64,000 nt of DNA, taken from Bilabrum cf. latius. Its lineage: Eukaryota. The stretch lies in contig OZ237738.1 of NCBI GenBank assembly GCA_965178125.1, forward strand, positions 1,364,001 through 1,428,000. The letters are read 5' to 3'. The number at the start of each line of letters is the position of its first letter. Position 1 is the first letter of the stretch. Below the pieces are notes generated by a model that was not told where the DNA came from, ran no database searches, and saw only the letters and a program-made list of their open reading frames with translations. The translations under genes and the position numbers were made by a program. Shown here piece by piece: positions 1 through 64,000 of this stretch.

Positions 1-336
1 ATGTTCCGCTACGCTCATGATGCGCATAAGGACGCAACTGCTGTGCACATTGCAGCTGCTTACGGCAGACCGCTGCAGCTGGAGGTCTCCCTGGAGCGCG
101 GCAAGCACGCGGGCGCCCTCGACCTCAAGATGCAGGTGGGAGGCGCAGGGGAAGCGATGACCGCGCTCGAAGCGGCTCGGTTTGGCGGGCATGACGAGTG
201 CGTGAAGCTGCTAGAAGAGGCAGCTAAGGCGGCCAATCCGAAGAAGTAGCGCAAGGCTGCTGGGCGCGGCAAGGCCCGTGCAACCCGCGGCAGGAGCAGG
301 AGCACGAGCAAGGGCAAGCGTGGCCGGAAGTGGTAA
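1..336 (+). CDS. Ankyrin-repeat protein, 3' part (5' end probably outside the window)
   Basis: Ankyrin-like motifs TAVHIAAAYGR and TALEAARFGGHDECVKLLEE. The in-frame TAG at 247-249 is followed by a basic tail (RKAAGRGKARATRGRSRSTSKGKRGRKW) ending at TAA 334-336. Confidence 0.7.
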
Positions 337-570
337 CACCATCGCTCATGGGAATCACCGTAGCATGCGAATGAATCCAGACCTAATGTAGGCCTATGTT
401 GTCATACTCCGATCCGCTCGCATACTATCCAACCAAATTACCTTGGCAACACACCTTACAAATATCAACGAAGGAAAATGCAGAGTTTGTAGTCCCAGCG
501 CTGCCCCTACTAGTGCCGTCGCCAGTCGCAGCTCGTGCGGCGCCATGCTGGCCCGCCACCGGCCAATCAG

Positions 571-3294
571 TCAGGCCGCTATGTTCTGCCGGATGTATGA
601 CGGCACAAAATGGTCAAAAAACCAGGGCCCCGGCGGAGCACCCTCTTCCTGCGGCGGGTCACCACCGCCGAACCCAGCTTCAGCTAGTACCGACATTGAC
701 ATGCGAACCACAGGCTCGTCCCCAAGGCCACCCGAGGAGCGGCTTGCCATCAGGAGCTGCGCAGCAGCAGTCATGTCCACCTTGCCCTGGCCCGGGCCGT
801 CGCCCCCTGTCCCTCCCCCGCCCGGTTTCCCCCTCTCTCCCGGTCCGGCCCGCGGGAGAACAAACACTCGCAGCGAGCCATCGGCACCGGTGCGAGCTCT
901 CTCCTCCTGCTCGTCTCGGCGCCACGGCCTCCCCCCCACGCTGCCCTCCCCTCCTCCAGGTTCCCCACCGGCATCGGGGTCAGGACCCCCCATAGTGGGG
1001 CCAGGCACCAGCGCAGTCACGGGCTCTGGAGGCCTCGACATGGCCCCGCGGCCCGAGTGCCCTTCCCTGTACGGCAGCCGAACCGCCGCACTCGTCAGTT
1101 TCGCGTACCTGAACATCCTCTCACGCCACTCCACGCCCCCGAAGCTGCCCTTGGCACCGACAGCCAGGCTCTCTACGTGCCAGTGCGCCATGAAGGAGCA
1201 CCCGTCCGCGTCGCTGTCGCTCCCACTATACTAATACACATCGGCCGCGGCGGCCACGGCAAGTGCCCGAGCGATCCCTGCGGTACGCCCCTCGGTGGGC
1301 GTCAGTCTGGCACGAATGGTTTCCCGCCGCGGGTGTGCGTCCGCCTTGCCGCTCCGGGGAGCGCACCCCGGCGCGCCCACAGCGTCGGCGCGGCAGCCAT
1401 CGCAGCGGAACTCGGGCAGGATGAGGGTCCTCCCGGACGCCGCCGCGAGAGCGAAGCCGGCCCGCAGGCCCGCCACCTGGACCTTCAAGGAGGCGGATTG
1501 GTTGCCCCCCACGAGCTCGAGGTACCTCCTGCTGCCACCCGTGTAGTAGCCCCCGTCTGACCCAGGTGGCCAGACCCCCCCCTCGAAGGCACCGGCGGGC
1601 TGCGCGCCGATCTTCGAGAGGCCGTCTAGAATGGCCTGCACGGGCTTAGGAGGAGCCAACCGTGGCTGCACCATTCCCTGCGGGATTGCACCGTCGCCGT
1701 CGGCTGTGGGAACAGCACCACGGGAGTGAGGGCTTGGCGGCATGCTATCGAAGAACCAAAGCAGCATTTCCTTGAAGCGGTATATCTTCGCTTCGTTCCC
1801 GTTGACCCAGTTGTTGTGGATCATCAGCGGACACCGCGAGTCTGCTTCGGCCACGGAACTCCCGTTGCTTGATGACGAGTCTGCTGCGGCTGTTTGCCTT
1901 GCAACAGGCCTCGCAGCTCCTGCACTTCCACTCGCCCACCCGCCTCTGAGCAGTCCCAATGCCCGAGTTCCGGATGAGCCTCCGACGGTCGGGCCAGCCA
2001 CCGAGCGCTAGCAATCGAAGATTCCAACGCAACCGTCCCGCAGGCTGCCAGCGCCCACCTCTGCCTCACGCTTGGCGCCCGGCGCCAGAGCCTCGCTACC
2101 CCACGCGTCCCCGTACGTGGGAGCGGCGGCTGCATAGCCGGGGCACGCGCGCACCCAGGCAAATGCTCGGCGCTGCATTTCGCCACCAGCCCTGGCTTCA
2201 AAGTACGTCTTGCCGCACGGGTACCGCCTGTCGTCCAGCACACGGAGGGACAGCTCCTTCCCTCGTACGACGACATCGGAGTCACCGGCGCCGTGGACGT
2301 CCCCGTGTGCCCTCTGGAGAACAATGTTTACCGCCGTCTGGTCGTGCATGGTCCTGTCGGTCGACTCCACAGCGACCCGCACGGACTCTTCCAGGAACGC
2401 TAGGCTCCTGCGACTGGCTCGGGCCAGCATGAAGCCGCTGTTGCGGGACCCGCGATCGTCCTGCATTGCAACATCGGGGAGGATTTCCCGCGCATTCGCG
2501 GGAAGATACGGCACACGGTCATCTCGAAGCGCCAGCGAACCCGCGACATCTTGCAAAAAGACGATGTCCCCGTCCACGATGAGGGCGTCAAGGCCAAAGT
2601 GCACGGCGGCCATCATGATCTCGGTCTTAGTGTTGGCAACGCGCGCAAAGGCGACCGAGCCGAAGGTTCCACTCCCAATGTCTTCGCTCTGTGGGTATTC
2701 CCAGCATTCGTAGGCCCGTCGCAGAGGCGACGAAGCGTTCCCTTCAATTGTGTCAGACCATCGCCCGCCCCTGCCCGGCGGAGAAGTCACCCCTATGCCG
2801 TTCGAAAACCCAGCAAGAGCAGCATGGCGGGCCATGAGCTTGTCCAATTTGTTGCACACGCAAGGTTTCGTGGCAACCACGAGAACGTTATCGTAGCCAA
2901 ACCGCAAAACATTGGTCAGAAGCCCGTTGACCAGCATTGGAAGGTAGCCACCATCACCAACTGTGACCATGACGCTACCTGAGCCCTTACTGGTCCTTCT
3001 CAAGGCATCCCTGAAGGACTCGTCGTGAAAAAGCTTGGATGCTGGCGGAGGTGTGGTCTCTGAGAGGTCGATAGGTTCTGGGAGCGACGGGAGCTCGCTC
3101 AGTTTCTATTGCTCAGGAATGCCATCGACTATTAGCATTTGTGTGCATTCCAGATCATGCTGCAAAAGCACGTCACCATGTTGCAATGCCTTCCATGTCA
3201 GGAATATACATGTAATCGCTGCAATGGAAACGGTTACGACGCATAGTTCTCGCTTCCGGGCAACACTAATCGATCTACAGTGCGATCCTAGCAT
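571..3294 (-). CDS. Type II membrane glycosyltransferase, nucleotide-diphospho-sugar transferase (GT77/XEG113-like), ~907 aa with TAG=Gln
   Basis: ORFs 3106-3387, 2008-3003, 1231-2001 and 571-1191 share one frame, joined by TAG at 3106, 2008 and 1231; final stop TGA at 571. N-terminal TM (LCVVTVSIAAITCIFL), DGD motif, NSGF, DQ and HNNW motifs, and a downstream ALAAASGRTLILP segment. Start ATG 3294 is inferred. Confidence 0.75.
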
Positions 3295-3394
3295 ATCCAC
3301 TAGATGCAAGCTGATACGGCACAAGAAATCGCACTGGAAGGGATCTGATAGACCGCACTGCCAGTGGTGGTTTTGGCCACAATGCAATGCAGTT

Positions 3395-4298
3395 GGGAGG
3401 ATCTGATATTTTCAAAAATCGACTCAAAGGCGCACGCTATCACGAACTCACACCTGCAACGATCTGGAATGAGGGCCCGGGACCTGCCAGGCTTCACGCT
3501 TCAGCTGTGATGGCCAAACGCTGAGCAGTCCAGTGAGGACCCATGCCCCCCAGGCAGGCGGCGGCGTTCACGTTCCCTCCGGCGCCCGCTGCCGGCGGCA
3601 CCCCGTCCTGCTGCCTCTTCTGAGCCAGCCCTGCCTTGACGTTGGTGACCGCCATGGCGTGGTTGTTCCTTTCAGCTGCCCCTACAGCCAGGCTGGCAAA
3701 GTCCATCCCGGACTGCCCTTACGAGCGCCCGTGTGGCCTTCGCTGCAGCCTCCCTCGATCCCTTCGAGACGAGGTCGAGGATCCTTGAGTGGTCCTGCAT
3801 GACCAGTGAGTACACAGTGTGGTACACACGCTGTTCCCCGCGCACGTGGTAAATTGGGGGGATCTGATATTTTGTGGACTCAACTCAAAAGCGCACGCTA
3901 TCACGAAGAAACATCTGGAACGAGGGCCCGGGACCTACCAGACTTCACGCTTCAGCTGCAATGGCCTAAACCACCTAAGCTCCACCCTGGGGACCCATTT
4001 CCCCCTGGGGAGCGTCAGCGTTCACGTTCCCTCCGGCGCCCGCTGCCGGCACCCCGTCCTGCTGCCCGTTCTGAGCCAACCCTGCCTTGACGTTGGCGAT
4101 CGCCACGGCGAGGTTGTTGCTTTCGGCTGCCCCTACAGCCAGGCTGGCAAAGTCCTCCCGGACCGCCCTTGCGAGCGCCCGTTTGGCCTTCGCTGCAGCC
4201 CTCCTCGATCCCTTCGAGACAAAATCGAGGATCCTTGAGTGGTCCTGCATGACCCGTGAGTACATAGTGTGGTACACACGCTGTTCCCCGCGCACGTG
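3395..4298. repeat. Two diverged tandem copies of a ~450-bp unit (~3395-3848 and ~3857-4298)
   Basis: Shared blocks: GGATCTGATATTTT, GCGCACGCTATCACGAA, GAGGGCCCGGGACCT, CGTTCACGTTCCCTCCGGCGCCCGCTGCCGGC, GAGGATCCTTGAGTGGTCCTGCATGACC and GGTACACACGCTGTTCCCCGCGCACGTG. Confidence 0.9.
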
Positions 4299-4449: not shown

Positions 4450-5934
4450 ATGAGAGCAGCCCAAGTGTGTCGGCATACGTTCCGGTTGGTAAATTTGACC
4501 GGGTGCAGGTCGTTGCGCACTTCATCAAGGGCATACATGTCAACAAACCCTTTTGATCGTGCCGAGATGGGCACTCCCGATCCGATTCTGGGGCTATCTG
4601 AGGCCTTCCAAAAGGTACGTGTTGCAATCTCGTTGAACTTGGTTATTAATTGCATGGAATGTTTATAGTGCCCGCCTCTTGCAGCCATGCGGACCGGTCA
4701 TGTCGGGCTGGCAGGCAAGCAGACACGTATCACTGCTCGCAAGGGCCGTTTGCACTTCGCCATCTCCATCGTATTGCAGGACTCGGACCCTCGTAAAGTC
4801 AGTGTGGGTGTTGGTGCGTATCGAGACGATGATGGCAAGCCCTACGTGCTACCGAGCGTCCGCGAGGCTCAGAGGAGGATGGTCGAGAAGGGTCTCAACG
4901 AGGAGTACGCCGGGATCCTGGGGATCCCCACCTTTGTAAGCAAGGCAACGGAGTTCCTGTATGGGCACGACTGCTCTGCCATCAAAGAAAACCGCCTGGC
5001 GGCGTCCCAGGCCCTCTCAGGAACAGGCGCGCTGCGCGTGATGTTTACGTTCCTGCACGACCACCTTGGCGAGCGCGCCGACGGCCAGCCGCACAAGGTC
5101 TACATGCCCAACCCCACCTGGGCAAACCACCTCCCCATCGCTAGGTGCAGCGGACTGGAGCCGGCACAGTACAGCTACTACCACCCGGAGACGGTGGGCC
5201 TGGACTTTGACGGCATGCGCAAGGACCTGGAGGGAGCAGAGGACGGCTCCCTCGTCCTCTTCCACGCCTGCGCGCACAACCCGACGGGGATCGATCCCAC
5301 GCGGGAGCAGTGGTCGGAGATCTCCGACCTGTGCAAGAAGAAGGATTTCTTCGTCCTGTTCGACTCGGCCTACCAGGGCTTCGCCTCGGGCGACGCCGAC
5401 AAGGATGCGTGGGCCGTGCGCGAGTTCGTGAGCCGGGGACACCACATGATGGTGGCGCAGTCCTTCGCCAAGAACTTCGGCCTGTACGGCGAAAGGGTCG
5501 GGACTCTGTCGGCGGTGTGCAAGGACGAGGAGGAGAAGGCTAGGGTGACCGAGGCGCTCAAGCGGACCATCCGTCCCATGTACAGCAACCCGCCCATCTA
5601 CGGGGCCAGGATCGTGGACGAGGTGCTGGGGGACGCCGCGCTGGAGGCACAGTGGAGGGAGGAGTGCAAGGGGATGGCGGATCGGATCGCGAGCATGCGG
5701 CAGGCGCTGAGGTCCAAGCTGGAGGGCCTAGGCACTACGCGGGACTGGTCGCACATCACCTCCTAGATCGGCATGTTCTGCTACAGCGGGCTGGCCCCCG
5801 AGCAGGTGGACCGCCTCCGCGAGGAGTTTCACATCTACATGACCCGCAACGGGCGGATCAGCATGGCCGGTGTGACGAGCAAGAACGTGGACTACATGGC
5901 CGAGAGCATCCACGCCGTCACCGGGGGGCATTGA
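4450..5934 (+). CDS. GOT2: Aspartate aminotransferase, mitochondrial type; exons 4450-4614 and 4780-5934
   Basis: Arg-rich presequence, [36 protein letters not shown] lysine motif [16 protein letters not shown] 5764-5766 lies in HITS*IGMF, followed by the GRISMAG motif and TGA 5932-5934. Intron 4615-4779 (GTACGT...TGCAG). Confidence 0.95.
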
Positions 5935-6413: not shown

Positions 6414-7688
6414 TCACTCGTCGTCGGAGCCGGACTCGTCCTCGTCGTCGTCCGAGTCGGAGTCGGCGGCCGCGGCCTGGCGCTGCAGGATGGTGCGGTA
6501 GGCGTCCTTGAGGCGGTTGATCTCCTCCCGGCGCTCGACGGCGGTCCTCTTGGGGGGGTTCTTCTTGGAGGGGTCGTGGGCCACGGCGCCCTTGCGCTGG
6601 GCGCGCTGCTCCTTGCGCTCGGCGGGGGTGCCGGCGGGCATGGCGTGGATGGGCTTGGGGTCGGCCTTGATCTTGTCGAAGAGGCCGCGGAAGTGGCCCT
6701 CGATGCCGTCGGGTCCGATGCCCGCCTCGACGTACTTGGCGAAGTGCTTGGCGTACGTCTCGTCGCCCTTCTGCTCCTTCACGTACTCCATGGCAGCCTT
6801 GACCTGCGCGCCCACGATGCGGGCCACGTGCTCCTCGGCGTTGTACTCGCCGGTCTCAACGTCGTACCCGGGGAAGCGCTTCTCCGAGTGGGGGATGTCC
6901 AGGCCGCCGTCCACGGCGCCCTTGAGGGCACCGAACAGCTTGCAGCCGCGGGTCGCCACCCTGACGCCGATGTCCAGGTAGCAGCGGAAGGGTCGGCTGT
7001 CGTCGTCCAGCTCGGGCACGTAGCAGAGCCTCTTCTTGGTGAAGCGCTCCTCCAGCTTGGGGTACTCCTCGATCTTGGCGGCGATGCGGCGGGGCAGGAT
7101 CGGGTCCTCATCGGTCTCGATCTCGCCGGTGATCTCCTCCACGGGGGCGTACTTCTCATGCAGGCCCATGCCGGCCAGGTGGGGGCTGCACTGGAGCAGG
7201 CGGCGGGCGCACAGCAGGCCGGTGGCGTACGCGGCGGCGTACGACTTGAGGCCGCAGGCGGGCACGCCGTACTTCTTGGGGAACTCGGCGGACGAGGCGT
7301 GGCAGATCACGACATCGTTGGAGATGGTCGAGTACACAACCTGGCAAGTGCAGTACCGGTTCGAGAAGCGCACCACGAGGCGGTACTTGTGCATCCCGTA
7401 CTTGCTCTTGTCGTTCACGACGAGGCGGCGGCGCTGCGCGTAGTCGGTCTTGCCGTCACGGCGGCGGCGATACTTGACCTGGTACCTCTTGAAGTAGGCC
7501 TTGTTCTTGATCACCTTGAAGAATGGCTGCAATGGTTCAAGTAGGGTGGGAGCAGCAATGGCAACAGCTTGAAGACCAAAATGACCCTGTCCTGTCCATA
7601 ACAACAACCATTGAACGAAAGTGGCTGAGCTATACTAAGTAAAAAAAAGAAGTAGCATCGATGTAAGGCCACGAAAGATGCTCACCAT
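6414..7688 (-). CDS. RPL5: 60S ribosomal protein L5 (uL18); exon 1 is the ATG only (7686-7688), exon 2 is 6414-7526
   Basis: KVIKNKAYFKRYQVKYRRRRDGKTDY, AAAYATGLLCARR, GALKGAVDGGLDIPHSEKRFPG. Intron 7527-7685 (GTGAG...TGCAG). TGA stop; no internal TAG. Confidence 0.95.
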
Positions 7689-7836: not shown

Positions 7837-9589
7837 ATGAAATCATGTAAGTACTTACCCTACAGCTCCCACTGGATTGCCTCGAGAAACTTATTTGTTC
7901 TTACTATTTCTTGCCCTTGAAAGATCGCAGATGGCTTGTCTGGTCGGTGTGGGTCGATTGATAGATATGAGAAAATAGGAAAGCTGGGAAAAGGAACCTA
8001 TGGTAAGATTTATTTGTTCTATGATTGGGTTTAGGTCGTAATATGGCTTGATTCAACCGTTCTGATGTTTTTAGAACTTGCCATGCATATGTAGGCACCG
8101 TTTACAAGGCCCGGCACAAGGACACAGGCGCACTCGTAGCTCTCAAACGGGTAATTCTGCATAGAGAACACTCAGACGGAGTGAGCACTTCGTCCAATCG
8201 CAGTGGCATGGCACCGCGGGGGCGTCAAGACTGCTTCCAGCCCACGATTTGCACTTGCCGCCCCACTCGCAGTTTCCTCTCACATCGCTACGCGAACTCC
8301 GGTGCATGCGCATTGTCCAGCATCCATGCGTGCCCAGAGTGCTCGAAGTGGCCGTCGGCCGCAAGCGCGAGTCCGTCTTCATCGCGATGGAGCTCTTCGA
8401 CACGGACCTGGCCAAGGTGCTGGACGCCAGGGGGGTGGGCTTCCCGGAGCCGCAGGTGAAGCGCCTCGCCATGCAGCTGCTTGATGCACTGCGGGAGGCT
8501 CACGCGAGGTTCGTGCTTCACAGAGACGTGAAGATGTCTAACCTGCTGTACTCGAGCGGGAAGCTCGGCCTGACCGACTTTGGACTAGCGCGACAGTCTC
8601 CCCGCAAGAGGGGCGCAGACATGTCTCCCGGGGTGGTGACTCTCTGGTACAGGCCCCCAGAGGTGCTGCTGGGGGGAAGGCAGTACGGTCCGGCGGTAGA
8701 CGTGTGGGGCGCGGGCTGCGTGCTAGCCGAGCTCCTCGTGGGCGAGCCTCTTGCTCCGGGGAGGGACGAGGCCCACCAGCTGGCCCTGTACGTCGAGCTG
8801 CTGGGACACCCGGAGTAGGAGGAGGGGGGGGAGGAGGGGGGTAAGGGGGGAGGCTCGGGCATGGGCTGTGGCGTGGGCGCAGCCGTGGGGTCATTGGGGA
8901 TGGCTTCTGGAGAACAGCATGGGAGATCGACTCTGCCATCGACTGCAGCCGTAGGCGGTGCTTGGGCTGGCGGTGGCGCCGGGACTGCAGGCACCACCGC
9001 TGCCGCTGGGTCGGCCGCTGCCCCCAGCGGTCGTGGAATTGGTGGGACAATCACCTCAGGATTGGGTGACGGAGAGGGGTACGGTTGGAGAGGCGCCCTG
9101 GATCTGCCCGCCTATGCCCGCCTCTGGCGCGCGGCGAAGCCCTGGGTGAGCAGGGCGCGGGAGAGGATGGGCACCGGCGGGGCTGGGGCTGGTGCTGGGG
9201 CTGGGGCTGGGGCTGCTGGTGCACAGGTGGGTGAGAAACGAAAAGAGGCCGGAGCTGGCGCTGGTGTGACGAGTGCGGCCTCCATGCTGTACAGGCCCTC
9301 GCTGGAGGTGCTGCTGCGGGGGCACTGCAGCGAAGAGTGCGTGCGGATGCTGCGGGGGCTGCTGCACTGGGACCCTGCCAAGCGGCTGAGCGCGGCGGTG
9401 GCGCTGGATCACCCGTGGTTCTCTGCAGCGCCGCCGGCGTGCCCGCTGGAAGCGATGCCTAGCAGCGAGGTGGCGGCGTCGCTCGGCGGCCTTGGCGCTC
9501 CTGCCTCCAGCGCGGCATCTAGATCCATCGCACGACCCGGTGCTGGAGTCGTCCCATCTAGTCGCATGGATGACGGCGATAATACCTAA
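7837..9589 (+). CDS. Cyclin-dependent kinase, CDK10/CDK11-like; introns 7847-7930, 8003-8094, 8181-8272
   Basis: Spliced frame gives YEKIGKLGKGTYGTVYKA, VALKRV, GFPLTSLRE, HRDVKMSNLL, DFGLAR, VVTLWYRPPE and WDPAKRLSAAVALDHPWF. In-frame TAG at 8816-8818; TAA stop 9587-9589. The first micro-exon is less certain. Confidence 0.85.
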
Positions 9590-9620
9590 GTGCACAAACG
9601 GAATCAGACGGGAGCCTCGG

Positions 9621-12800: not shown

Positions 12801-14485
12801 CCGGTTCCGCTGCCTCCGAGGGACAGGCTCAGGCTCGGCGACAAGCCAGCCGAGCCTAGAATGGGCGACCCGGCGCCCCCGCCCGAATTGTTCCCTGAGG
12901 GAGACACGTCCTGATGCAGGGCGGCGGCCATGCCCAGCGTGGCCAGCCCGATCCCCGTGCCCATCCCCACGCTCACCCCGCCAAGGAAGCCCCCGCCGCC
13001 GCCACCCAGACCACCCAGAGACGAGTCCGAGGAGCCATCGGGCCGCCGCTGCCTGCCCGGCGGCGGCGGCGGCGGAGGCCCACCGAACCCGGCGCTGTGG
13101 TCAGCAAGGAAGCTCTGCTGGTAGGCGGAAGCCAGCGAATCTAAGGGAACGTTCTCTCTGGGGGAACCATCGGGGGCGTAGGGGTCCTCTGTCCCCGCAA
13201 AGGCCAGGTCGATCGCGCTCCCGCCCCGTGCCCCCCCGCGCCCGCGCCCAGACGCGCCCCCGCCCCGGCCTCCCTTGGCCCCGCCGTTCCGCTTCTTGGC
13301 CGCGCTGCTTGAGGTCCTCCGCTTGGAGCGCGACCCTCCGTCTATGCTCTGCTGCACTCGCTGCAGAAACGCGACCGCCAGTTCCTTGCGCCGCTCCTTG
13401 GCCTTGAGCGCAGCATCGCTGCCACGGTTGGCAAACGCCTGCTGCTACTTCTTCTAGAAATCAGACTGCGACAGAGAGTTGCGCAAGGCCCCAAAGGCAC
13501 GGGTATGGAGGCAAAACACTGGCGGGAGGCCAGCCTTCGATGCACAGCAGTACCAAACACTGGACAAGCGTGCAGATAGCGGGGAAAATCGTCCTCATCA
13601 TTGGGAAATCAGGTGCTGCTATGCCGCGTACCAATCAAAACACCACGGGACGCAGCGTGCTGCGACCGAAATGGCAGCAACACTCGGACACCAGCTGCAA
13701 CTGCAAGAGCAACTCTCGAAAGAGTGCACATATTGCATCGCAAACAGGGAGTGGTGCAGCCGCAAAGGCGCCCCATGCATGAGAATATGCTATGATCCGC
13801 CCAACGGCACCGCAGCGCGTCGCCGCTAGTGTCCGAGGTCACCGATCGGTATGTTTCTGAAAGACGAACGCTCCAGCTCTGTTTCGTCGCTTGACAGAGC
13901 AACATGTCCCACTGCTGGCCATAGAAGCGGTTTATTTGCACTGTTCCACCGTCATTCGCCACACCGCAATAGAAATTATGCAATACCAAACAGATCTACT
14001 TGGATGGCCCACGTGAAATCGCGCAAGCACGTCCGACTTGCGCCGGTAGATCGTTCGAACTGCCATGACGCGCCTACACCACGCCGATGGAGGAGTCTCA
14101 CCTTACGAATAGACAGAGTTCTGTTATATTTTTTAGTGACGCGCATTGGATCCACATAGAGCGCGGCCGCAAGGTACTCTCGGAGCGAGAGGCCGCCTGG
14201 CAGCATAAACAGGCCAGACTGCCAGTCTTCAACTACCTGCGAAGCGTAGGCAGTTTCCTCTGGACTCCACTTCCCCTTCCTTCGTTCACTGCCAGTGAGT
14301 ACTGCATATGCATCTGGGTACATCTGGGGTCCGCCTGCCTCCTTCATCTCCGCCAAAGCTGGGGTGTTGTGCTGCGTGTATTGCTGGCTAGCATCACCAT
14401 CGCCCGACGTCACGCCGCCCCTACCAGCATCATCTAATCCACCTGATGGTTCATACCTGTCAGGACGAACTCTGCGAGTATTCAT
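9842..14485 (-). CDS. Putative transcription regulator: N-terminal Myb-like domain plus a long Gly/Ser/Gln low-complexity region; exon structure in 13466-14101 uncertain
   Basis: RKGKWSPEETAY...LREYLAAALYVDPMRVTKKY in the first exon; donor GTGAG at 14101 and likely acceptor CGCAG near 13466. ORFs 10694-13357, 10415-10645 and 9842-10405 share one frame, with TAG at 13454, 13445, 10694 and 10415; TGA stop at 9842. Confidence 0.6.
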
Positions 14486-51121: not shown

Positions 51122-51565
51122 GCGTGAGGGAGTCGGCGCGGGATCGAGGATGGGGCGGATCGGCGATCGGTCGTCGGATTGTAGTGGGCGTGAGCTGCCG
51201 GTAGATTAGCGGGTGATTGCAGCTGCCTGGACTGAACTTTGCACAGCCATGTGTTTTTTAATAGCATCGTTAGTTTCTCGCGCGTATGATTGTCTGCTCT
51301 TTCGCGGCCGGGAAACCTCGCAGCACAGTGTCCCTCCCGACAAAAAAGCTCATCATCAAGCTTCATCAACTTGCGACCACCAGTCTGTCATGCCCGTCCT
51401 CGTTGGCCGCCGGCGCATTCTACATGCCGCACCTGTCGAATCAGCGCAGCGAGAGGTGCTTCGAGTCAATATTAATTTAAGGTATCGTTTGGTCAGGTCG
51501 TAGTGCTGAGGGGCGCATCCATAAGGTGCCAAGCATCGGTGTCAACGGCTCGCCAACACATTGTG

Positions 51566-54500: not shown

Positions 54501-55687
54501 TCCAGGACGCATACGCAAGCGTGATCCAGAGGTGGTTCAGGGCCTACCTGACGGTCCGCTCCTGGAAGCGCATCCGGGAGGAGACACTCAAGGTGTACCG
54601 CAGGGCGCAAATCCGGATCAAGGCGGTGCGGCGCAAAGCCGCGGTCATGGCCGTGCAGTGCTTCTGGAGGTGCGTGAAGGCCAGGAGGGAGGTGCTGCGG
54701 CGACTGCTGGGCCGGTGGTGTCTCATGGGTGACTTCGAGAACGACGTGCCGTTCTACATGAACATGCACACGATGGAGAGCATGTGGGACGAGCCAGGGC
54801 TCGTGCGGGCCCTCGCTCGCCATAGCTGGGACAAGGGCAGGACCCGCCGGGTGCTGATGATGAAACCATCGGCGAGGCACAAGTACTTTGAAATGAACGG
54901 AGGGGACTTGCAGCAGCTGCTCGGTTTCGAGTCGGCCGAAGAGGCAGAGGAGTTTGAGGCCGCTGAGCTTGAGCACGAGCGTGAGGCAGTTGCGAACAAG
55001 AGGAAGCTCCTCGAAAGTACGTCCAATGGTGGGAAAGGCCGCAGCGACTCTGGTGCATCTAGCCGAATCGAGAGCGGCGGCAGCAGTAGCAGCAGCAAGC
55101 AAGGTGCGGGAGACAGCAGTTCGAGGGGTGCTACCGAGGGACCCGCCAGCGGGGCAGGCGCAGACGAAGACCCGGGGGAAGGCCAGGCATCCGACGGAAG
55201 CGCGCATGCTGTCCCGGTGTGGTACCAGAAGTGCATCGACGCAGCCGTGCCAATGTCATCGGCGGCACAGGAGCGCATGGCATCCGTGTACGGCGACATG
55301 GATGAGAGAGAACAGTGGGTTTGCGTCGTGGAAACTGGGGGGGCGTACTTCCAGCACCACCTGTCGGGCGAGGTGAGGCAGTATGCTCCGGGCGGTTACA
55401 TAGTGTGCGAGGAGTGCAAGTCGTACTTTGCCACGTGCTATGCGGATGGCATGGACAAGGTCTTGTGCTCCACGTGCTTCATTTCCATGCACAAGAAGCC
55501 GAGCAGGGTCGCCACGCAGGCCTACCTCGTCCCTCGGGGCCGCTACTGGCACCCGTATCAGGCCCCTGACCACGTGCCTAGGACGCCCTACTAGCTGTTT
55601 GGCGACGAATTTTGCCAACCCCTGGTTGAGATGGCGCGCCCGAAGCCAGAGCTGTTCAAGAAGTACTTCGTGTACGACGCAACGTGA
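51566..55687 (+). CDS. Multidomain protein, ~1,373 aa: EF-hand, Trp-periodic helical repeats/coiled coil, IQ motifs, WW-like and B-box-like Zn finger
   Basis: FDISRTGIVDPRE (EF-hand), VIQRWFRAY and AVQCFWR (IQ), FYMNMHTMESMWDEP (WW-like), CEECK...LCSTCFISMH (B-box-like). Five track ORFs share one frame, joined by TAG; TGA 55685-55687. Confidence 0.75.
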
Positions 55688-56357: not shown

Positions 56358-59300
56358 TCATGAGCTGAAACCGATGCGATGCAAAGCTTCCTCCGTGCTG
56401 ATGTCCCCTCTTGTTGCGGCTGCAGCCGCACCGCTCCCAGCCCAGGACAGGCTGAGCGGCTGCTCAGACATAGGAAGTGACTACGACGAAGACGACGACG
56501 AGGCTGAGGCCGTGCGAGGCTACCCAGCAGCCGGCGCGGCCCAACTCGGACCGGTACCGCCCACCTGGCTGCTGTCCTGTTCCCAGAAATGGCCCTCGCC
56601 ACCGCGATCACGGGAGGCAGCAGCGTCATCGCCGCCGCGTCGCCGGACTGCCTGCGACTGCCCGCTCGCTAGACTGTAGCCCGAGCCCTAACTCGCGATC
56701 CTGTCCGAGCTGGTATCAGACTGCGACGTGGAGGCCCAGTCAGAGCCACCCGACGCACGCCTGAACAGGGGGTCCCCAGAGACGCGTACCCTCCGCGCCT
56801 GTGCGTGCACCTCCCGCGAAAAGTCATCCAAGTCAGCCGCTCGCAGAGTTGGCTGGTGCAGCAGGCTGCTACCTGGGTTCAAGTACCCGCGACTGGCACC
56901 TCGTTTACCTGAGCGCTTGCGCTTAATCCGCCTTGGTTTGGGGCGGGCGACCCCATCGGGGTCAGTGGCAAGAGCAATGGTGCTTGGCCCGCTGCTAGGC
57001 ACCGAGCTGAACGAGCCCATGTCTATGCGGCCTGTCGAGAACGGCAATTCGTCCGTGTCCATCTCCGCCGACGGGCTCGCGGCCAGCTCGCGGGACCCGC
57101 CCCAATCAGAGGCCGTCAGCTGCCCTGACGACCCGCTGCCCTTCCTCTCGTGCATGGCCAGTCGGTCGAAGCCGTCCTCGCCGATGTCGTCATCCTCGCT
57201 GCCAGCCCCGCTCCCAAGCTCGCCTTCGCCTTCGCTCTCGCTGACAAATTCGCTCTCCCCGTCACTACCGTCCTCACCGTCGCTGCTGCGGTCGCTGTCC
57301 CCGTCCTCCATCTCGCTGCCCCCATGGGTGGCTGCCTGCTGTTTCCAACTCTACCTGCCGAAACCGAAACCGCTGGCATCCCCAAATAGCATCGCTGCTC
57401 CAGTGCCACCCTGCTCCACGCCCCAGCACATGTCCTACTCCTCCCCGCTGTCCTCTCCGCTTTCCTCCCCGCTGTCCTCCCCGCTGCCCTCACCGTCCGG
57501 GTTGTCAGGGTAGTCCTGGCCCTCTGCCTCCGAGTCGTCGGAGCCATCTTCCTCCCCCTCCTCCTCATCACTGCCAATCCTAGCACCTCCGAGCCAGTCC
57601 AGCGCCCCTGCACCGTAGGCATAGTCTCCCACCTCGACAAACCCACCGTCGTCCGGGAGGGCGGTCACAGGGACGACGTTGCCGAACGCCGCCTGCATGA
57701 AGACGTTTCCTGGAAAGGCGCGCGAGTCGATCGGCGAGGATTTCTCCCCGCCCACTACATGTGCATCGAGTCCAGCCACCACACTGTTCCCTGATTCGAA
57801 TATGGAGCTCTCCTGCGCGGCTGCAGAGTGCGTCTCGACGTAGTGGCCAGAGGTGTGGGCCCTGCTGGTGGAGCTGACAGAGTTGACCGAAGTGGAACGG
57901 CTGACGACCTGCCAGGCGTTCGTGCGCTTCAGACGAGGGGCCGGGCTACGGATGGCGGCGCTATCGACTCCGAGGTGCTCCTCCTCCTGCAGCTCCCCGA
58001 ATGCGTCTGGGTCGAGCTCGTACCCGTGTGGGTTGCTTCGGCTCGACCTCCCGCTGCTGCCCGCCCCCACCGTCCTATCCCCGTCCATTCGTCTAGATCC
58101 AGCGCCACCGTACAATCCCCCGGCCGTCTACGTTTTCTTCCACCTGTTTCTGGTGCTGGGCGCAGCCTAGGCATCGAGGCGCCCCGCGCTGCCGCGGCTC
58201 CCCACCGACCCGACTGGGGAGTTAGGCGCTGAGCTGCTCACCACGGACTGCAAAGGGGGACTGTGGGTGCGCAAGGCCAGTCTCACCCCGCCAGCTGCAC
58301 CTTCTGCGCTTGCGTGCCAGTCGTCTCTTTGTCTGTCGCTGGCACCCAGCTGCATCTGCTGCTGCTTTCCTCCTCCCAGCTGGGCTGCCCAGCTCGGTGG
58401 CATGGAGGCCATCATGGTGCCCAGCGGATCCACGACGTAGTAGTCCTCCTCCTCATCCTCGTCGTCGTCGTCGTCGTTGTCGTCATCGTCTCCGTCTCCT
58501 ACCCCGTCATCTTCCTCAAGAGCACGCGCCCCCCCTCTCGCCAGTCGTTGCGGTCCTAGACCGGACCCGGCACCCCCCCCCTTCCTCATCGCAGCCGAGG
58601 CACCATGGGCTTGATCGAGCCGACGGGAGGATCTGGACAGAGCTGCGCCGGGAATGATACTCCGGGCCACGCCAGCACTCGTGGCAATGCTGCCGCTTAC
58701 GTTGGACGACACCCCGCCGGCGGCTGAGGTGAGCTGCTCTGACGCTGTGGTGGGGCCTGCTGCACTCGCAAGGACGCCTACACCTGCCTGAGTTCCTGTA
58801 TAGGGTGCTGTATCGACTGATTGCTCTTGTTTCTCGGCATGACTCTCCAGAAAGGCCTCAAGTTTGAAATGCCCTGCTCTCCTTGCGTACTCGCTTGCCG
58901 TCATCCTCTCGGAGCTCTGCGCAACGGTAGAGGCTCCGTACTTAAGCAGTTGCTCGCACAACTGCTGTAGATTGTGCTTGGCAGCAGCCATGAGAAACGT
59001 TTTCCCCGTCGTTGAATGCGCAAACTACGCGATTTGACATCGCCGGCGCCTCTATTCAGCCGATCGGCTTGCGGAAGCAGCGGGAGGCGAAAGCCACGCC
59101 CGCAGTTCGCTAAATCTGCCTGTCTCGAACATTTTAGACACATAATCGCCCATGCTTACTGGCTTAGGCATCCTCGTATCGCCAGTTTCCTGGTACTCGC
59201 CAACTGCGCTTGCTGGCAAGAGGCCGTGGGCGCCCGAGTGCGATGATCTCCCGCTTAAGGACGAAGCCATGGCCCCGTACTGCTATATTCGCTCCATTAA

Positions 59301-59873
59301 TGTCGCTTGGCGACGTCCAGCTTGGCTACTGCTGGGTATGGCGGGTAAAACGCTGCCAAGCACCGGTTGTTCAGAACTGCCTGCGCGTCTCTGAGCCTAC
59401 TGTGCCTACTCTCGTATCTTCGAACTGATCTTTTGGGCTTCATCATGCAAACGTGTCGCTCGATGCTGCACGTCCTGTTCAACAGTCTGCGTGGGAGCAG
59501 TCTTCCGTCTCGACGCAACTCGACGAAGCACAACCCTTCGAGGTTTTCCTCCGGAGCTGGCGCTTTTTGGAACTCTTGATGCGCTTGATTTATCAACAGC
59601 ACATCCATTTCCCTCTTTTTTGGGTGCAGCCCCTTCTACTTGAGACCGGCTCACGTGGGCTTGCTGCAAGCTTGCTGACACATCCTCGATTGCTCCATCC
59701 AATCGACGGCGCTGCCGTGGCGGCGGCTACTGCTCTTCAATCAATACTACATCGACTGGTTCTCTGGCACGCTTTCGACGCACTTGCACCACTGGTAGCT
59801 AGCCTATTCGCGAAAACTTTGCGAACGACCAGTCCAAACCATTCTGTGCTGGTGCACCTCCCAACTCAGACAT
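56358..59873 (-). CDS. Iwr1/SLC7A6OS-like protein with an inserted ankyrin pair, ~1,171 aa
   Basis: N-terminal VVQVRRKRAREPVDVVLIE, ankyrin pair GKTFLMAAAKHN...MTASEYARRAGH, acidic EDYYVVD and SDDSEAEGQDYPD. One frame interrupted only by TAG; TGA at 56358. Family assignment is from recalled motifs. Confidence 0.6.
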
Positions 59874-60153
59874 CTTCCGAAGCTTTGCGGCTTCAAAAGT
59901 CAATGAGAAATGTGTGTATGGGTTATGGAGTGGAAAGAAGCCGATCCTCTGGTTTTGCTATGCAGCGGTTGTGAATGTGTTCGTGCCCCGAGCGACCAAA
60001 GGTGGACAACTCGCAGCTCAGCTTCGAGCATGAACGGAGTCGCTTCTTTGTGCCTCCTAGATCGCGACTCGAGCGTTTGGCACTCAGAGCAGATTCATGT
60101 AAGCTTGTTCAATATCACAAACACACTGCCGCCCCACAGTCACAGTCCAAGCG

Positions 60154-63100
60154 TCATTGCGGCTGCTTCCTCCTCTGCTTCCTGGGCGGTCGCCCGCCGC
60201 GAGCCTCGCCCAATGTACCGCCTTTCTTGGATGCCTTTGAAGCTGAATCGTCCTCTCGCTTTCGTTTTGATCCTAATCGCCGTCCTGATGCCTTCGAAGG
60301 ACCGGCAGATGAGGCGCCTTGCCCGGTTTCACCCGACGGTTCACCACCTGCAATGCCTCCGACCCGCCGGGCGGCCGCAGCTTGAGCAGCCTAGCGAGCG
60401 AGAATCCGATCGATGCTTCCCAACAGAAGCAATTTCTTCTTTTTGGCTGCGGAACCCCTTCCGGTTCCCCACGGCGCATCGATCGCCTGTTGCGTCATCC
60501 AGTGCACCACAAGGCCGAGCCCAACAACAGCAGTGCCGTCCGCCACAGCTCCTCGCATGGCCTTGCTCACCTTGTCTGCGACGATCAAAGCTGGTTCTCC
60601 GCTCTTCGCTGCATCTGCTACGGCGGCGAGGCTTCCCAGCGTGGCTCCGCATGCGGCGGCGAACGCCTTTTCGTGCTTCTTGCCAGCATGCGCATTGACA
60701 CCGCACAGGAGACGCCAGCCCTCCCCCTCCCACCCTGCCTCCTCCCCGCGCGCGTTCCTTCGGGCTATGCTGCCTTCGATCGTAAATCCGTTCTCCTTCT
60801 CTGCCGCCTCGTCGACCGCCACGTGCTCCGGGGAAGAGGGATCAACCACGACACCCTGCTCCCCGCACGCCTCGAGCCACGAGGGGCGTACCACGCAGCA
60901 GCGGCGGCTCAGCGCCACGAGCAGCTTCTCGGACCGGCGGCCGTCCCCCCTTGGCTTGAGCACGAGCACCGTCCCGTCCGACACCTCGTCCGCTAGCCTG
61001 AGCCCGATCGCCTTGAGGACGGCCTCGGCCTGCTTCTGCTCGCCCGCGTCGTAGTTGGACAGCACCACGTCCTTGGGGACGAAGCCGATGCCCTGGCCTG
61101 GGCCCGCCCCGCCTGCCCCCGAGGAGGGGCCGGAGGCGGGGGGGGCAGGGGCGGGGGGTCTAGCTGAGGAGGAGGCGCTGCTCGAAGATGAAGAAGGTTT
61201 CGATCTGGTGGAGCGCCGGCGGAGAAGGGGCGCCCCTGTCCCTGTCCCTGCCCCTGCCCATGCCCCCGCCCCCCCCGCCGAGGGGGGCGGGCCCGCGGCT
61301 GCCTGTGCGGAGGTCTCTGCTTCGTTCGGGGCCTTGGATGCCTTGCGGGTCCTCTTGGAATTCCTTGCTGCTGCTTGTCTGCCTCGCTTCGAGGAGGTCT
61401 TGGAACTCCCTTCAGCTGGCAGATCGTCCGATGGATCTTTCCCCGAATCCGGATCCTTCGCGCCTGGAGGGTCACCGGATATGGCTGGATCCGACACCGG
61501 ATCTTTGGATCCCTTCGGCTTTACGGCACTCTTCTTGCCTCGCTGTCCCTGTCTGCGCCGCCCTTTCCGGCCAGAACTGCTTGGCTCGGGTGCTCGCCCG
61601 GCGGGGCTGGCTGGCCTCTCGGCGCGGCCTTGGTCACCGCCATCGTGGGAGCTCGAGCCAGCTGCCAGGTCCTACTTGCGTTCGGGGTCGTTTCCTGGAG
61701 CCTTAACATCCTCACTTTTAGCTGCATCTACACCTTTGGCTTGTGCAGATCCCTACAGCTTGGAAGCAGCCGCAAGGCTCCCTTTGCGCTCGCTCTGCTG
61801 GCCACCGGAGCTCGCCGGGGATGCTGGCGGTCTCGTTGCAGCGGAGACAACTCCGGCCCGCGCCGCGACTAGGCTTGCTTCTGCCTTGCGCTCAGAGTCG
61901 TTGCTCTCATCGGCTTCAATCTGCTAGAATCTCGCTGCCGGCTGCGCGACATCCCCATCAGACTCGCCACCCGGCAGGCGTGCTGCAGCCATCCCTTCCG
62001 ATTCGTCGATGCCGTCTATTTCCTCGTCTTCGTCGCCTTCGTCCTCATCCTCACCACCATTCATGAGATGATCCCGGCTTCGTTTCTATGCAAGCAAAGA
62101 TTGGCGCCTGCCTAGCCTTGAGGCAGAGACGATGCCTCGACTTGGCCGTGTGCCATCACTGCCGGGTCCGATTTGGCGATGGCTGCCCCTATGATCGGAT
62201 GGAGAGCTAGGAAGCATCAATGGGACATCAGCATCGTCCATGCTGCCAAGTCCTAGTGCATCCTGGGTGTCCTCCATCACCATGGTGCCTCCTGCGTACA
62301 TGTCTGCCTCCCCGCTGACGTCCTACTCGAGGCCCATGCCAGAATCGGCCGCTTCAGCACCATCCTACTGGGAGCCTCTCAGCGATGTTGCCCTACCGCT
62401 CTATGGAATAGCCTCATCGTTCGCTCTATCGGCATCGTTCGCGCCGTTCGCGGCTGAGGATGAGCTACTGCTGCACGCGGTGCCAGCTGGACCGGCCTTG
62501 CCAGTGGCGGCCTACTGGCTGTCATGCTCTTGTTCGTTGTCATCGCCCGCGGCTTCCAAAGCTTGCGATGAGAGCCCAACATCAGGAATAGCTTGCGTCG
62601 GAGCGGTGGCAATGTCGCCGTACGCCTGAGTGGGAGCAGTGGCAACCGGCATGGTCTGAGCCGTCTGGCCTCCAGAGGACGAAGACGTAGATGACCCGCC
62701 CCGCGACGACCCCGACGCCACTCCCTCCTGCGCGTCCCAGTGGCGACCACCCGCAGCAGAGGGGTTGTTCTAGCCGTTTCCATCCACGGCACCTGCAGCT
62801 ACGTCGGCCGGGAGGACCTGCGTGGCATCATCATCATCGTCGTCTGCGTCTGCGTCCCAGGAGACCTCCCTCACTGCCTCTGCAGCGTCCTGTGCTTGCA
62901 CAGCTAGCGCGGCATCGTCTTGGGATCCTTCTGCAGGCCTGCCGTCGGCATTAGCTGCGGCTGCGGCTGAGCTGCTCGACGAGGCGGCACTACTACTGCC
63001 GCTATTGCTCGCTGCCTGCGCATCCACTTGCGAGGCTGGTGCAGACTGGGACGGGAGAGCGTCGAGCGCCTTGGCGACCGCAGAATCGGCTCTCGCGAGC

Positions 63101-63752
63101 ATCTGGCTGCCGACTCCGGACGTGTCGGCTGAGCCCGAGCTGGAAGCCTCACTTCTTGGGCTGGATGCAGGCTTGGGCGACTGCGCAGCCGCCGCTGATG
63201 CTGCTGTGGCCGGAACATGCGCGCCCTTCCCTTGATTCTCGCGTGGTGATGGCACCCCTATTGAAGACTGCGGAAGGTCAATAGCACCAATTCCCTTGCT
63301 CTTGGCGTTACTGCCGCCCGCACCTCCACCCACCGCCTCTTGAACTGTCTTTCCTCCTAGCACTGCCATGAGCTCTTCGGTTGAGGCTCCATCCTCATCG
63401 TCCCCAGTGTCGCGCAGCATGTCCTCTTGCTCCACCATGTCATCTTCTTCATCGTCATCATCATCGTCCTCGTCTAGGATACCATCTTGCGTGTTGTGGA
63501 CAGCAACTACTGTTCCTCTTTCCTTATCGGCTCCTTCATGCTGGCCCGCTGACCGCTCCACCTCGTCCCCGCCCTCCATGGGCACCTGGCCCGCTGCTGC
63601 TTCCGGAGTGCCACGGCCCGTTGCTCCCGGTGGCTCATCCCCCGGGTCAGTTTCAGCGTCAGTACTATCTCCATCGTCGTCTCCATCGCCGTCCGCATCA
63701 GTGTCCCCGGACTGCATGGGCGCCTGCTGAGCGGCAGCCGCGCTGCTGCTGC

Positions 63753-63787
<35 letters not shown>

Positions 63788-64000
63788 GTCGCAGGCGCGG
63801 GTTCAGGTGCGCCAGAGAGAGTTAAAGTGCTTTCTTGTGCTTTCCCAGGCCCGGCGCCGTCGGTACTCCCAGACGAGAGCTGGCCGAGTTGCATAGCAAC
63901 GTCGATGGAATCGGTAGCGAGGACCTGCTCCTCTGTCAGCAGCGGCCTCACTTTTTCGCTCTCAGCGGATGCTGCCTCTGAAGAAATCCCATCTGGCAGT
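60154..64000 (-). CDS. Tandem-BRCT DNA-damage mediator (MDC1/PAXIP1-like); 5' end outside the window
   Basis: RRSEKLLVALSRRCCVVRPSWLEAC...EKENGFTIEGSIARR...LLCG resembles MDC1-type BRCT. The upstream acidic disordered region has TQ/SQ and DTD-like motifs. One frame joined by TAG; TGA at 60154. Confidence 0.7.

Follow-up and report, generated by a model that had tools for sequence, protein, structure and literature searches.

Evidence that UAG is read as glutamine in nuclear genes of a GC-rich protist in which UGA and UAA end genes

Introduction

Changes of the nuclear genetic code are uncommon. Different meanings of UAG and UAA within one code were unknown before 2017, and the accounts in PMC5304391 and PMC11687900 describe a handful of lineages with such codes since then. 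The closest of them, UAG as glutamine beside UAA and UGA as stop codons, is documented in these two sources for Iotanema and a few ciliates. In Iotanema spirale (Fornicata) only UAG is reassigned, to glutamine, and UAA and UGA terminate; as described in PMC5304391, no UAG terminator was observed there, and TAG occurs at both hyperconserved and variable glutamine positions. The ciliates Hartmannula sinica, Trochilia petrani and Protocruzia tuzeti have the same codon table according to PMC11687900.

In other systems only part of this pattern is found. UAG-to-Gln is shared by the codes in which UAR stands for glutamine, as reported for many ciliates, Hexamita, Ulvophyceae, Streblomastix and Amoeboaphelidium protococcarum; the same reports document a tRNA-Gln(CUA) in Tetrahymena and Spironucleus (PMC11687900, PMC5304391, PMC6299283). 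UAG is split from UAA but stands for another amino acid in the rhizarian exLh and the TARA phyllopharyngeans (Leu) and in Scotinosphaera (Ser) (PMC11687900), the predicted decoder being a tRNA with the anticodon CUA. In crAss-like and other gut phages with code 15, TAG is read as glutamine via a suppressor tRNA, described as a phage-encoded switch of the infection stage in bacteria (PMC9523058, PMC10879173).

Here we analyse a stretch of 64,000 nucleotides with 62% GC (the window). The window very probably comes from the nuclear genome of a GC-rich protist in which UAG is translated as glutamine in the cytoplasm and UGA, as the main stop codon, and UAA end genes. Hence it shares the codon table of Iotanema and the three ciliates. 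It differs from Iotanema, a metamonad, in lineage, because the nearest named homologues of its proteins come from stramenopiles; from the UAR codes, because UAA is a sense codon there and a terminator here; and from the gut phages, because its genes belong to a eukaryotic nucleus and contain spliceosomal introns.

Results and Discussion

Genes and reading frames

Pfam supports the identity of the genes for aspartate aminotransferase (AAT), ribosomal protein L5 (RPL5), protein kinase, SUN, PQ-loop, Ras, IMP dehydrogenase (IMPDH), class II DAHP synthase (DAHPS), USP, GH16 and mitochondrial carrier; the name Derlin was taken from PDB matches. The genes and frames are as follows.

571..3411, minus strand: nucleotide-diphospho-sugar transferase frame; 3 TAG; terminator TGA
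4795..5934, plus strand: aspartate aminotransferase, second exon (PF00155, E 1.9e-86); TAG 5764 in HITS-q-IGMF; terminator TGA
6414..7490, minus strand: ribosomal protein L5 (PF17144); the sole gene without TAG in its supported coding part
8066..9589, plus strand: protein kinase frame; TAG 8816 in the coding part; terminator TAA
9842..13594, minus strand: low-complexity protein frame; 4 TAG, of which 13456, 13447 and 10696 lie within or next to Gln runs
14447..17179, plus strand: endonuclease/exonuclease/phosphatase-like (EEP-like) frame; 6 TAG; TAA nine codons past the end of the Pfam match
18447..24503, minus strand: SUN-domain protein frame; 2018 codons, 25 in-frame TAG; terminator TGA
24918..26360, plus strand: PQ-loop (cystinosin-like) gene (PF04193); TAG 25260 and 25305; terminator TGA
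26635..27356, minus strand: Ras-like GTPase (PF00071); intron 27172-27269; TAG pair 27084-27079 in DTAG-qq
27595..29650, plus strand: IMP dehydrogenase, three exons (PF00478); introns 27811-27997 and 28246-28482; TAG 28178 and 29594; TGA at 29648
29874..30856, minus strand: Derlin-like gene, three exons; introns 30176-30272 and 30571-30700; TAG codons from 30826 and 30510; terminator TGA; spliced contigs
31102..33469, minus strand: class II DAHP synthase, three exons (PF01474, E 7e-132); introns 32544-32711 and 32991-33366; TAG codons starting at 33418, 32937 and 32058; terminator TGA; spliced contigs
33611..47944, minus strand: giant USP-type deubiquitinase frame; 4777 codons, 19 in-frame TAG; terminator TGA
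48838..49752, plus strand: GH16 glucanase-like frame; TAG 49597; terminator TGA
49932..50411, plus strand: mitochondrial carrier exon; TAG 50070, just ahead of PLDVAKTRLQ
51476..55687, plus strand: IQ-motif protein frame; 1403 codons, 6 TAG
56358..60017, minus strand: frame without Pfam family; 1219 codons, 15 TAG
60154..63999, minus strand: BRCT-like frame extending past the window end; 10 TAG; BRCT match under the Pfam cut-off

The PF03372 match of the EEP-like frame (20.1 bits) also lies below the curated cut-off of 24.5. Two further TAG triplets are not part of supported coding sequence: the one at 4666 is intronic in the AAT gene, and the single TAG of the RPL5 frame (7637) precedes the conserved N-terminus.

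Read with the standard code, the window's three largest stop-to-stop open reading frames span 916, 645 and 532 aa. With TAG as a sense codon, the largest reach 4777, 2018, 1403, 1281, 1250 and 1219 codons, and translation with NCBI table 15 gives the identical set of eight frames of at least 900 aa. Adding TGA as sense lengthens frames far less than TAG does. The 17 coding frames comprise 16,933 codons (terminators excluded) with 99 in-frame TAG, 0 TAA and 0 TGA; since they are bounded by TAA or TGA, the two zeros arise by construction, and it is the length of the frames that carries the evidence. In the two off-phases of the same frames TAG was counted 111 and 99 times, TGA 240 and 312 times, and TAA 43 and 57 times. 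In-frame TAG is thus present in real protein genes, well above chance.

At least one in-frame TAG is found in 17 of our 18 gene models; the codon is likewise widespread in the three ciliates, with 78-84% of genes containing it (PMC11687900). An earlier note on this DNA had counted TAG in 19 of 20 models; the proportion is alike, but the exact count could not be reproduced, as the note did not give its models. The ten TAG codons that it had located are all TAG in the stated frame, four on the plus strand (5764, 28178, 29594, 50070) and six on the minus strand (27082, 33416, 32935, 39776, 10694, 13445), where the number is the low coordinate of the codon; the second TAG of the Ras pair occupies 27079-27081. 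Its observation of TAG beside Gln-rich tracts holds for the codons at 13447 and 10696. CAG or CAA accounts for 21 of the 198 codons flanking TAG (10.6%); the share of CAG or CAA is 8.5% next to Gln codons and at most 5.0% next to the codons of any other residue. The TAG share of the glutamine codons is 12.5%, compared with 18.5-31.8% given for the three ciliates in PMC11687900.

These counts also bear on whether UAA and UAG both encode glutamine, as in codes of the table 6 type, with TAA being scarce only through the high GC content. TAA is indeed the rarest stop triplet of the window (186 and 184 per strand), and UAA is co-reassigned in the majority of known UAG-to-Gln codes (PMC11687900). 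However, reading TAA instead of TAG as sense does not lengthen the frames; the top three stay at 916, 645 and 532 aa. Furthermore, at the observed ratio of CAA to CAG (168:524; CAA is 24% of both), 99 in-frame TAG should be accompanied by some 30 TAA, and none was observed. The TAA codons directly behind the Ras CaaX box and shortly behind the EEP-like domain point the same way. UAA as glutamine was therefore not found, and a UAR-to-Gln code is very unlikely here.

Residues at the TAG positions

Deep homologue alignments were available for five TAG columns, and all five are dominated by glutamine. All 119 homologues have Q at AAT 5764, as do 110 of 111 at IMPDH 28178, 115 of 120 at IMPDH 29594 and 61 of 75 at DAHPS 33416-33418; at DAHPS 32935-32937 Q is the commonest residue, yet present in only 21 of 78. 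The queries with which the homologues were collected spanned neither of the two DAHPS sites, nor IMPDH 28178. For comparison, Q dominates 30 of all 1325 columns (2.3%) and 26 of the 41 columns at the window's own CAG and CAA codons. Among relatives closer to this organism (73-96% identity), Q was found in five of six residue observations over four TAG sites, and E once; in the USP frame, the residue of P0121 (96% identical) is Q at 39778 but E at 41374. The Ras TAG pair, when aligned to wild-type Ral-A, falls on the catalytic Gln and on Glu, respectively; three Ral-B chains have L at the first position.

At variable sites, solved homologues show no conserved glutamine opposite TAG. Solved cystinosins have L or M at PQ-loop 25260 and V at 25305, solved GH16 enzymes H or D at 49597, and N is the residue of human Derlin-1 opposite the second Derlin TAG (30510). 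The third DAHPS TAG (32058) lies within an insert that is absent from 83 of 84 homologues. Solved carriers show F, Q, S or Y at 50070, and the ubiquitin proteases USP34, USP9X and USP47 show K or R at USP 39776. The last two are among the eight sites which the earlier note had listed as conserved glutamines; its assignment stands for the six in AAT, IMPDH (two), DAHPS (two) and Ras, but not for the carrier and USP, even though the 96%-identical relative has Q at the latter. Non-Gln residues at variable TAG sites are weak counter-evidence, because in Iotanema canonical Gln codons also align to non-Gln residues at variable positions, as PMC5304391 describes.

The same columns can be asked whether UAG is a sense codon for Glu, Leu, Lys, Tyr or Ser, in analogy to other UAG-only codes. 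E, K/R or L/M/V at some sites in distant homologues, and E in the one close relative, would fit this. In contrast, the summed log-likelihood over the five deep columns is -1.6 for Q, followed by H (-22.2), R (-29.4), L (-29.5), Y (-31.2) and E (-32.9), and three of the columns have Q in at least 96% of the homologues. The distance between Leu and Gln also separates the window from the exLh and TARA codes. An amino acid other than glutamine is thus hardly credible. Judged from the aligned homologues, UAG corresponds to glutamine at conserved positions.

UAG in transcripts

Spliced contigs from the runs X5, X6 and X7 (studies P2 and P3) show no differing letter within 24501-44500. The kind of these runs is a guess: they are termed RNA-type, are not recorded as RNA, and X5 is marked 'probably DNA'. 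Their contigs lack seven segments bounded by GT..AG, which are retained in run X1, a DNA run that may itself be the source of the assembly; the splice joint of the Ras-like gene is present in all three. The listed contig pieces cover at least 23 TAG sites. For IMPDH the spliced contigs of X6 and X7 contain no other letter, nor do the X5, X6 and X7 contigs spanning the PQ-loop gene, nor the listed RNA-type contigs at 15 TAG sites of the USP frame. Since spliced contigs have the same letters as the DNA, UAG is present in the mRNA. CAG in its place, which the earlier note had named as speaking against a changed code, was looked for in the spliced contigs and not found.

Without a code change, the TAGs would have to be assembly errors, parts of pseudogenes, or codons edited to CAG in the RNA. 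We found nothing in favour of this, although contigs lose rare variants and partial editing could escape such a comparison. Against it stand the identical letters in four runs of three studies, the uniformity of the spliced contigs over 20 kb, frames of up to 4777 codons free of TGA and TAA, and the good conservation of the encoded proteins. The chance that the code is the standard one is negligible. Hence, as far as contigs of runs of guessed kind show, UAG is unchanged in the mRNA and is due neither to editing nor to assembly error.

No in-frame TGA or TAA occurs in the spliced coding sequences with RNA support, those of IMPDH (543 codons), DAHPS (607) and Derlin (251). UGA or UAA as in-frame sense codons, as in the ambiguous stop/sense codes of the Condylostoma and Blastocrithidia types, were thus not found in them.

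Ends of the genes

Of 18 frames, 15 end with TGA and three with TAA. The TGA-ended frames include AAT and IMPDH, the C-termini of which agree with those of the homologues. TAA ends the kinase frame, the EEP-like frame and the Ras-like GTPase, where it follows the CaaX box CMIL directly (26637-26635). UGA thus still terminates, and so does UAA, with three such ends and no in-frame TAA. This usage differs from that in Iotanema, where UAA ends 104 of 119 transcripts (PMC5304391), and from that in the three ciliates, for which PMC11687900 gives UAA as the preferred stop codon and AT-richer genomes (27-54% GC in the class).

No frame requires TAG as terminator (0 of 18), in a small sample of frames drawn by reading through TAG. 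UAG could therefore have a dual meaning, glutamine internally and terminator in some contexts, e.g. near the 3' end. Precedents for dual meaning are Condylostoma, karyorelict ciliates and Blastocrithidia. With 18 gene ends, for most of which homologues do not define where the protein truly ends, and with frames built by read-through, a terminal TAG would be missed by construction. Yet IMPDH TAG 29594 lies only 17 codons ahead of TGA, and the tail downstream of it matches the C-termini of 120 homologues. In AAT, Ras and the EEP-like frame, the TGA or TAA stands at the point where homologues or motifs end as well, and the Ras TAG pair sits inside the G3 motif. Dual meaning is thus unlikely, if somewhat less so than the other alternatives. 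The preferred reading remains that UAG is read as glutamine. The frame lengths, the glutamine columns and the terminators together support the pattern that is the content of NCBI table 15, in line with the proposal of the earlier note.

Decoding and significance

From what is known of such codes (PMC5304391), the decoder of UAG would be a tRNA-Gln with the anticodon CUA, which would pair with UAG and not with UAA. Its gene would probably derive from a duplicate of that for tRNA-Gln(CUG), and the tRNA would be charged by the glutaminyl-tRNA synthetase. The N-domain of eRF1 would have lost its affinity for UAG and kept that for UAA and UGA. Within the 64-kb window there are no tRNA genes, no Rfam matches and no eRF1 gene.

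The code change is of a rare, already described kind, and looks like one in a lineage not yet reported with it. There is an even chance that it is an independent UAG-to-Gln change, with UAA and UGA as stops, in a GC-rich protist outside the ciliates and fornicates, either affiliated with stramenopiles or without named relatives in the databases searched. If so, this would be the first such case in that region of the eukaryote tree, and the change would have arisen in a genome terminating mostly with UGA. Such a genome fits poorly with 'codon capture' accounts, in which AT pressure leads to the loss of a stop codon. A further unrelated, GC-rich carrier would be an independent data point on the decoupling of UAG from UAA and on the role of base composition.

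Gene calling with the standard code fragments nearly every gene of this organism, and table 15 is therefore required to annotate the assembly and its relatives, to score their completeness and for any phylogenomics. Two public predicted proteins already end exactly at TAGs of the window: P0002, which is 99% identical to AAT, stops precisely at HITS, and P0123, a relative of the USP frame, stops immediately before TAG 43987.

Gene content of the window

About 18 eukaryotic genes are tightly packed on both strands of the 64 kb, at a GC content of 55-66% (4-kb windows). Some of the genes contain short GT..AG introns (98-376 nt); the DNA is nuclear. The following proteins and domains were recognized:

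Gene products of the window and the basis of their assignment
Aspartate aminotransferase (AAT), Pfam
Ribosomal protein L5 (RPL5), Pfam
Protein kinase, Pfam
SUN-domain protein, Pfam
PQ-loop (cystinosin-like) protein, Pfam
Ras-family GTPase, Pfam
IMP dehydrogenase (IMPDH), Pfam
Class II DAHP synthase (DAHPS), Pfam
USP-type deubiquitinase, 4777 codons, Pfam
GH16 glucanase, Pfam
Mitochondrial carrier, Pfam
IQ, BRCT and endonuclease/exonuclease/phosphatase (EEP) domains, weaker Pfam matches
Derlin-like gene, PDB matches

PDB searches gave no match for either the SUN region or the EEP-like one. Within the window no tRNA was found by ARAGORN and no Rfam match at the gathering threshold. A perfect (Ser-Thr)n repeat, about 16 units long, is present in the SUN-domain protein (23640-23760, minus strand), and long Ala/Gly/Ser low-complexity tracts occur in several further proteins of the window. 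A TAG-free open frame of 268 codons with no Pfam match (50581-51387, minus strand) faces the stretch that immediately follows the carrier exon on the other strand; it may be a mere antisense of additional carrier exons.

TAG in the reading frames

Under the standard code, stop-to-stop frames reach at most 916 codons. When TAG is read as sense, frames of 4777, 2018, 1403, 1281, 1250 and 1219 codons appear, and NCBI table 15 (UAG read as Gln, UAA and UGA kept as stops) yields the same eight frames of at least 900 codons. Reading TAA as sense instead of TAG leaves the frame lengths unchanged; reading TGA as sense lengthens the frames only modestly, as expected of the commonest stop triplet.

The 17 coding frames (16,933 codons) contain 99 TAGs in frame and 111 and 99 in the other two phases. 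As the in-frame count resembles those of the other phases, in-frame avoidance of TAG is absent, whereas across thousands of codons TGA and TAA are kept out. In the same frames TGA occurs 0 times in frame vs 240 and 312 times out of frame, and TAA 0 times vs 43 and 57 times; the zeros follow from the way the frames were delimited, and it is the frame lengths that constitute the evidence. The observation holds and lies far outside what chance would give.

Every TAG for which the earlier note had quoted a coordinate was found in its frame, and the claim that most gene models hold an in-frame TAG was borne out: by our own gene models, 17 of the 18 genes have at least one. The sole exception is RPL5 (6414-7709, minus strand), the only gene without TAG in its coding part. 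RPL5 is presumably the most highly expressed gene of the window, and its lack of TAG hints that UAG is perhaps avoided in highly expressed genes.

UAG is read as glutamine

Homologues from large database searches were aligned to the window proteins with X placed at each TAG. For DAHPS, 84 homologues were used, namely those of 400-650 residues among 150 matches listed.

Residues of homologues at TAG sites
AAT, 5764: Q in 119 of 119 homologues; the 120th match, 99% identical, stops exactly there
IMPDH, 28178: Q in 110 of 111, H in one; gap in 9 rows
IMPDH, 29594: Q in 115 of 120, I in 4, H in one
DAHPS, 33418 (minus strand): Q in 61 of 75, H in 10, others in 4
DAHPS, 32937 (minus strand): Q in 21 of 78, still the commonest residue
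DAHPS, 32058: no alignable column; within an insert absent from 83 of 84 homologues

Q dominates all five alignable TAG columns. Among all other columns it dominates 30 of 1325 (2.3%), and at the window's own CAG/CAA codons 26 of 41. Summed over the TAG columns, the log-likelihood is -1.6 for Gln, against -22.2 for His, about -29 for both Arg and Leu, and -32.9 for Glu. Three of the five sites lie outside the query stretch, which rules out that the choice of homologues was biased towards Q there. The reading of UAG as Gln, as proposed in the earlier note, is right in substance. The AAT site and both IMPDH sites are indeed conserved Gln positions; of the two DAHPS sites named as such, 33418 is one, but at 32937 Q prevails in just 21 homologues. 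The DAHPS insert (about 31850-32150, minus strand) is rich in Ala, Gly, Ser and Glu; its absence from homologues was counted at the sampled column.

In close relatives (73-96% identity) the AAT site is Q in three of three. In the single relative available for each site, IMPDH 29594 and USP 39778 are Q and USP 41374 is E; the USP frame had only 4 matches to shorter proteins, which kept the number of TAG sites open to comparison with close relatives small. Two public predicted proteins are informative in another way. P0002, 99% identical to the window protein at 4375-5934 (AAT), ends exactly at the window TAG, and the ORF of P0123, 90% identical to the USP (33611-47944), ends immediately before the TAG at 43987. 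Hence genes of this organism or a close relative are already truncated in the databases by standard-code calling.

As an independent check on composition, the codon neighbourhood was compared. CAG or CAA occupies 21 of the 198 positions next to TAG codons (10.6%), 118 of 1383 next to Gln codons (8.5%) and at most 5.0% next to the codons of every other amino acid. With 524 CAG and 168 CAA, TAG makes up 12.5% of the Gln codons, and Gln accounts for 4.7% of residues once TAG is counted.

Paired TAGs and sites without Gln

The Ras-like GTPase has a pair of TAGs (27079-27084, minus strand) right behind the DTAG of its G3 motif (DTAG-qq). In the alignment with wild-type Ral-A the first aligns with Gln and the second with Glu. 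The first position corresponds to the catalytic Gln61 of Ras; three Ral-B chains have L there, presumably the Q72L mutant used for structures. Decoding of the paired TAGs must be efficient for the protein to be made at all.

At less conserved positions, pairwise alignments to solved structures gave residues other than Gln: L or M at one cystinosin site and V at the other, N at the Derlin site (in Derlin-1), and H or D at the GH16 site. Two further sites had been put forward as conserved Gln, which the solved structures contradict, as the carrier site has F, Q, S or Y in them and the USP site K or R. Like those of the window, the UAG sites of Iotanema scatter beyond Gln-dominated columns: according to Panek et al. 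(PMC5304391), at a 50% conservation threshold 23% of UAG and 20% of canonical Gln positions fall in such columns. Since the same scatter is reported there, we weigh the non-Gln sites lightly.

UAG in the message

Contigs from four sequencing runs matching the window were compared over 24501-44500: X1, a DNA run, and X5, X6 and X7, which belong to two further studies, separate from the one behind X1. The kind of X5-X7 is a guess made with no RNA record (X5 is marked 'probably DNA'), and reliance is therefore placed on their spliced joints. X5-X7 contigs join across seven segments that are still present in X1; these have GT..AG borders (CT..AC where the gene is on the minus strand) and are placed exactly where the reading frames require introns.

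Segments skipped by X5-X7 contigs
27172-27269
27811-27997
28246-28482
30176-30272
30571-30700
32544-32711
32991-33366

Over the 20 kb, no other letter, insertion or deletion was found in any of the four runs, as judged from contigs, which drop rare variants, and with X1 possibly being the run from which the assembly was made. Among the pieces listed, those that have 0 other letters include 23 TAG sites (IMPDH 2, Derlin 2, DAHPS 2, USP 15, PQ-loop 2). TAG is also kept in the spliced contigs of X5-X7, so UAG is present in the mRNA as the earlier note expected, at the level of contigs whose RNA kind is guessed. Because the letters are identical in all compared contigs, errors of assembly and complete U-to-C editing are both ruled out.

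One spliced X5 contig of 11,883 letters spans 28483-41136 free of introns and comprises the 3' part of IMPDH (plus strand) together with Derlin, DAHPS and much of USP (minus strand). Such a contig suggests that transcripts overlap or abut, the genome being very compact, or else that the assembly merged them.

Remaining stop codons

Of 18 frames, 15 end with TGA and 3 with TAA; the end of the carrier frame is probably an exon border and not a real terminator. TAA comes straight after CMIL, the CaaX box of the Ras-like protein, and closes the EEP-like frame nine codons past the end of the Pfam match. TGA ends AAT and IMPDH where their homologues end. In IMPDH a TAG precedes the TGA by 17 codons, and the residues beyond it form the conserved C-terminus; nearness to the 3' end thus does not make UAG a stop in this gene. 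If TAA were Gln as well, about 30 TAAs should stand in frame beside the 99 TAGs, going by the CAA:CAG ratio. None was seen, and this reading was rejected.

Proposed decoding machinery

The data show the decoding outcome, whereas the machinery behind it is what we infer. The decoder would be a tRNA with anticodon CUA, the sole type that reads UAG yet ignores UAA, and one base away from tRNA-Gln(CUG). As the anticodon is an identity element for glutaminyl-tRNA synthetase, this enzyme would have to tolerate the changed anticodon. In addition, eRF1 would need to have lost UAG recognition, a loss that a GTS-motif substitution suggests for Iotanema (PMC5304391, PMC11687900). The eRF1 N-domain motifs given in PMC5304391 are GTS, (TAS)NIKS, YxCxxxF, E55, L69 and S70 (human numbering), and T32G is a substitution present in Iotanema.

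Relation to known codes and lineage

The codon table of the window is NCBI table 15. According to Panek et al. (PMC5304391), the attribution of this table to Blepharisma is an error and Iotanema spirale is the first real nuclear case. McGowan et al. 2024 (PMC11687900) add Hartmannula sinica and Trochilia petrani to the UAG-to-Gln codes and cite Protocruzia tuzeti for the same code. They also mention UAG-only reassignment to Leu or Ser in a rhizarian, other phyllopharyngeans and Scotinosphaera. UAR-to-Gln codes (PMC11687900, PMC5304391, PMC6299283) occur in Hexamita, ulvophytes, Streblomastix and Amoeboaphelidium as well as in many ciliates; UAA is sense in those codes but a stop in the window. 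The Amoeboaphelidium type was rejected accordingly, since the code reported there also reads TAA as Gln (PMC6299283). No nuclear UAG reassignment in a stramenopile or bicosoecid was found in full-text searches of mainly open-access literature. Codes of this kind have been described before, and the window adds a further carrier, which appears to be a GC-rich lineage distinct from ciliates and fornicates; if it truly is, this would be of real specialist interest.

The named homologues nearest to the window belong to the stramenopiles: brown algae, Tribonema, Hondaea and oomycetes for AAT (58-62% identity), and for IMPDH Cafeteria (70%), followed by Phaeomonas, Phaeothamnion, Mucochytrium, Florenciella and Pythium (66-68%). 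In quick single-gene trees (IMPDH, 43 of 121 available rows; AAT, 32 rows) the window lies on its own branch, grouping only with environmental sequences. A metagenome scan with IMPDH gave at least 79 loci, of which the first 30 were examined; P0125, a relative at 93% identity, is outside the matches listed. Nearest among the matches listed were the loci L001 and L002 (76% IMPDH identity, 73% GC), which have long standard-code frames and no TAG effect. The IMPDH tree also contains Melainabacteria, Vampirovibrionales and cyanobacterial sequences, 67-68% identical to the window protein, nested among the eukaryotic (stramenopile) ones, which points to this type of IMPDH having been transferred long ago between bacteria and eukaryotes.
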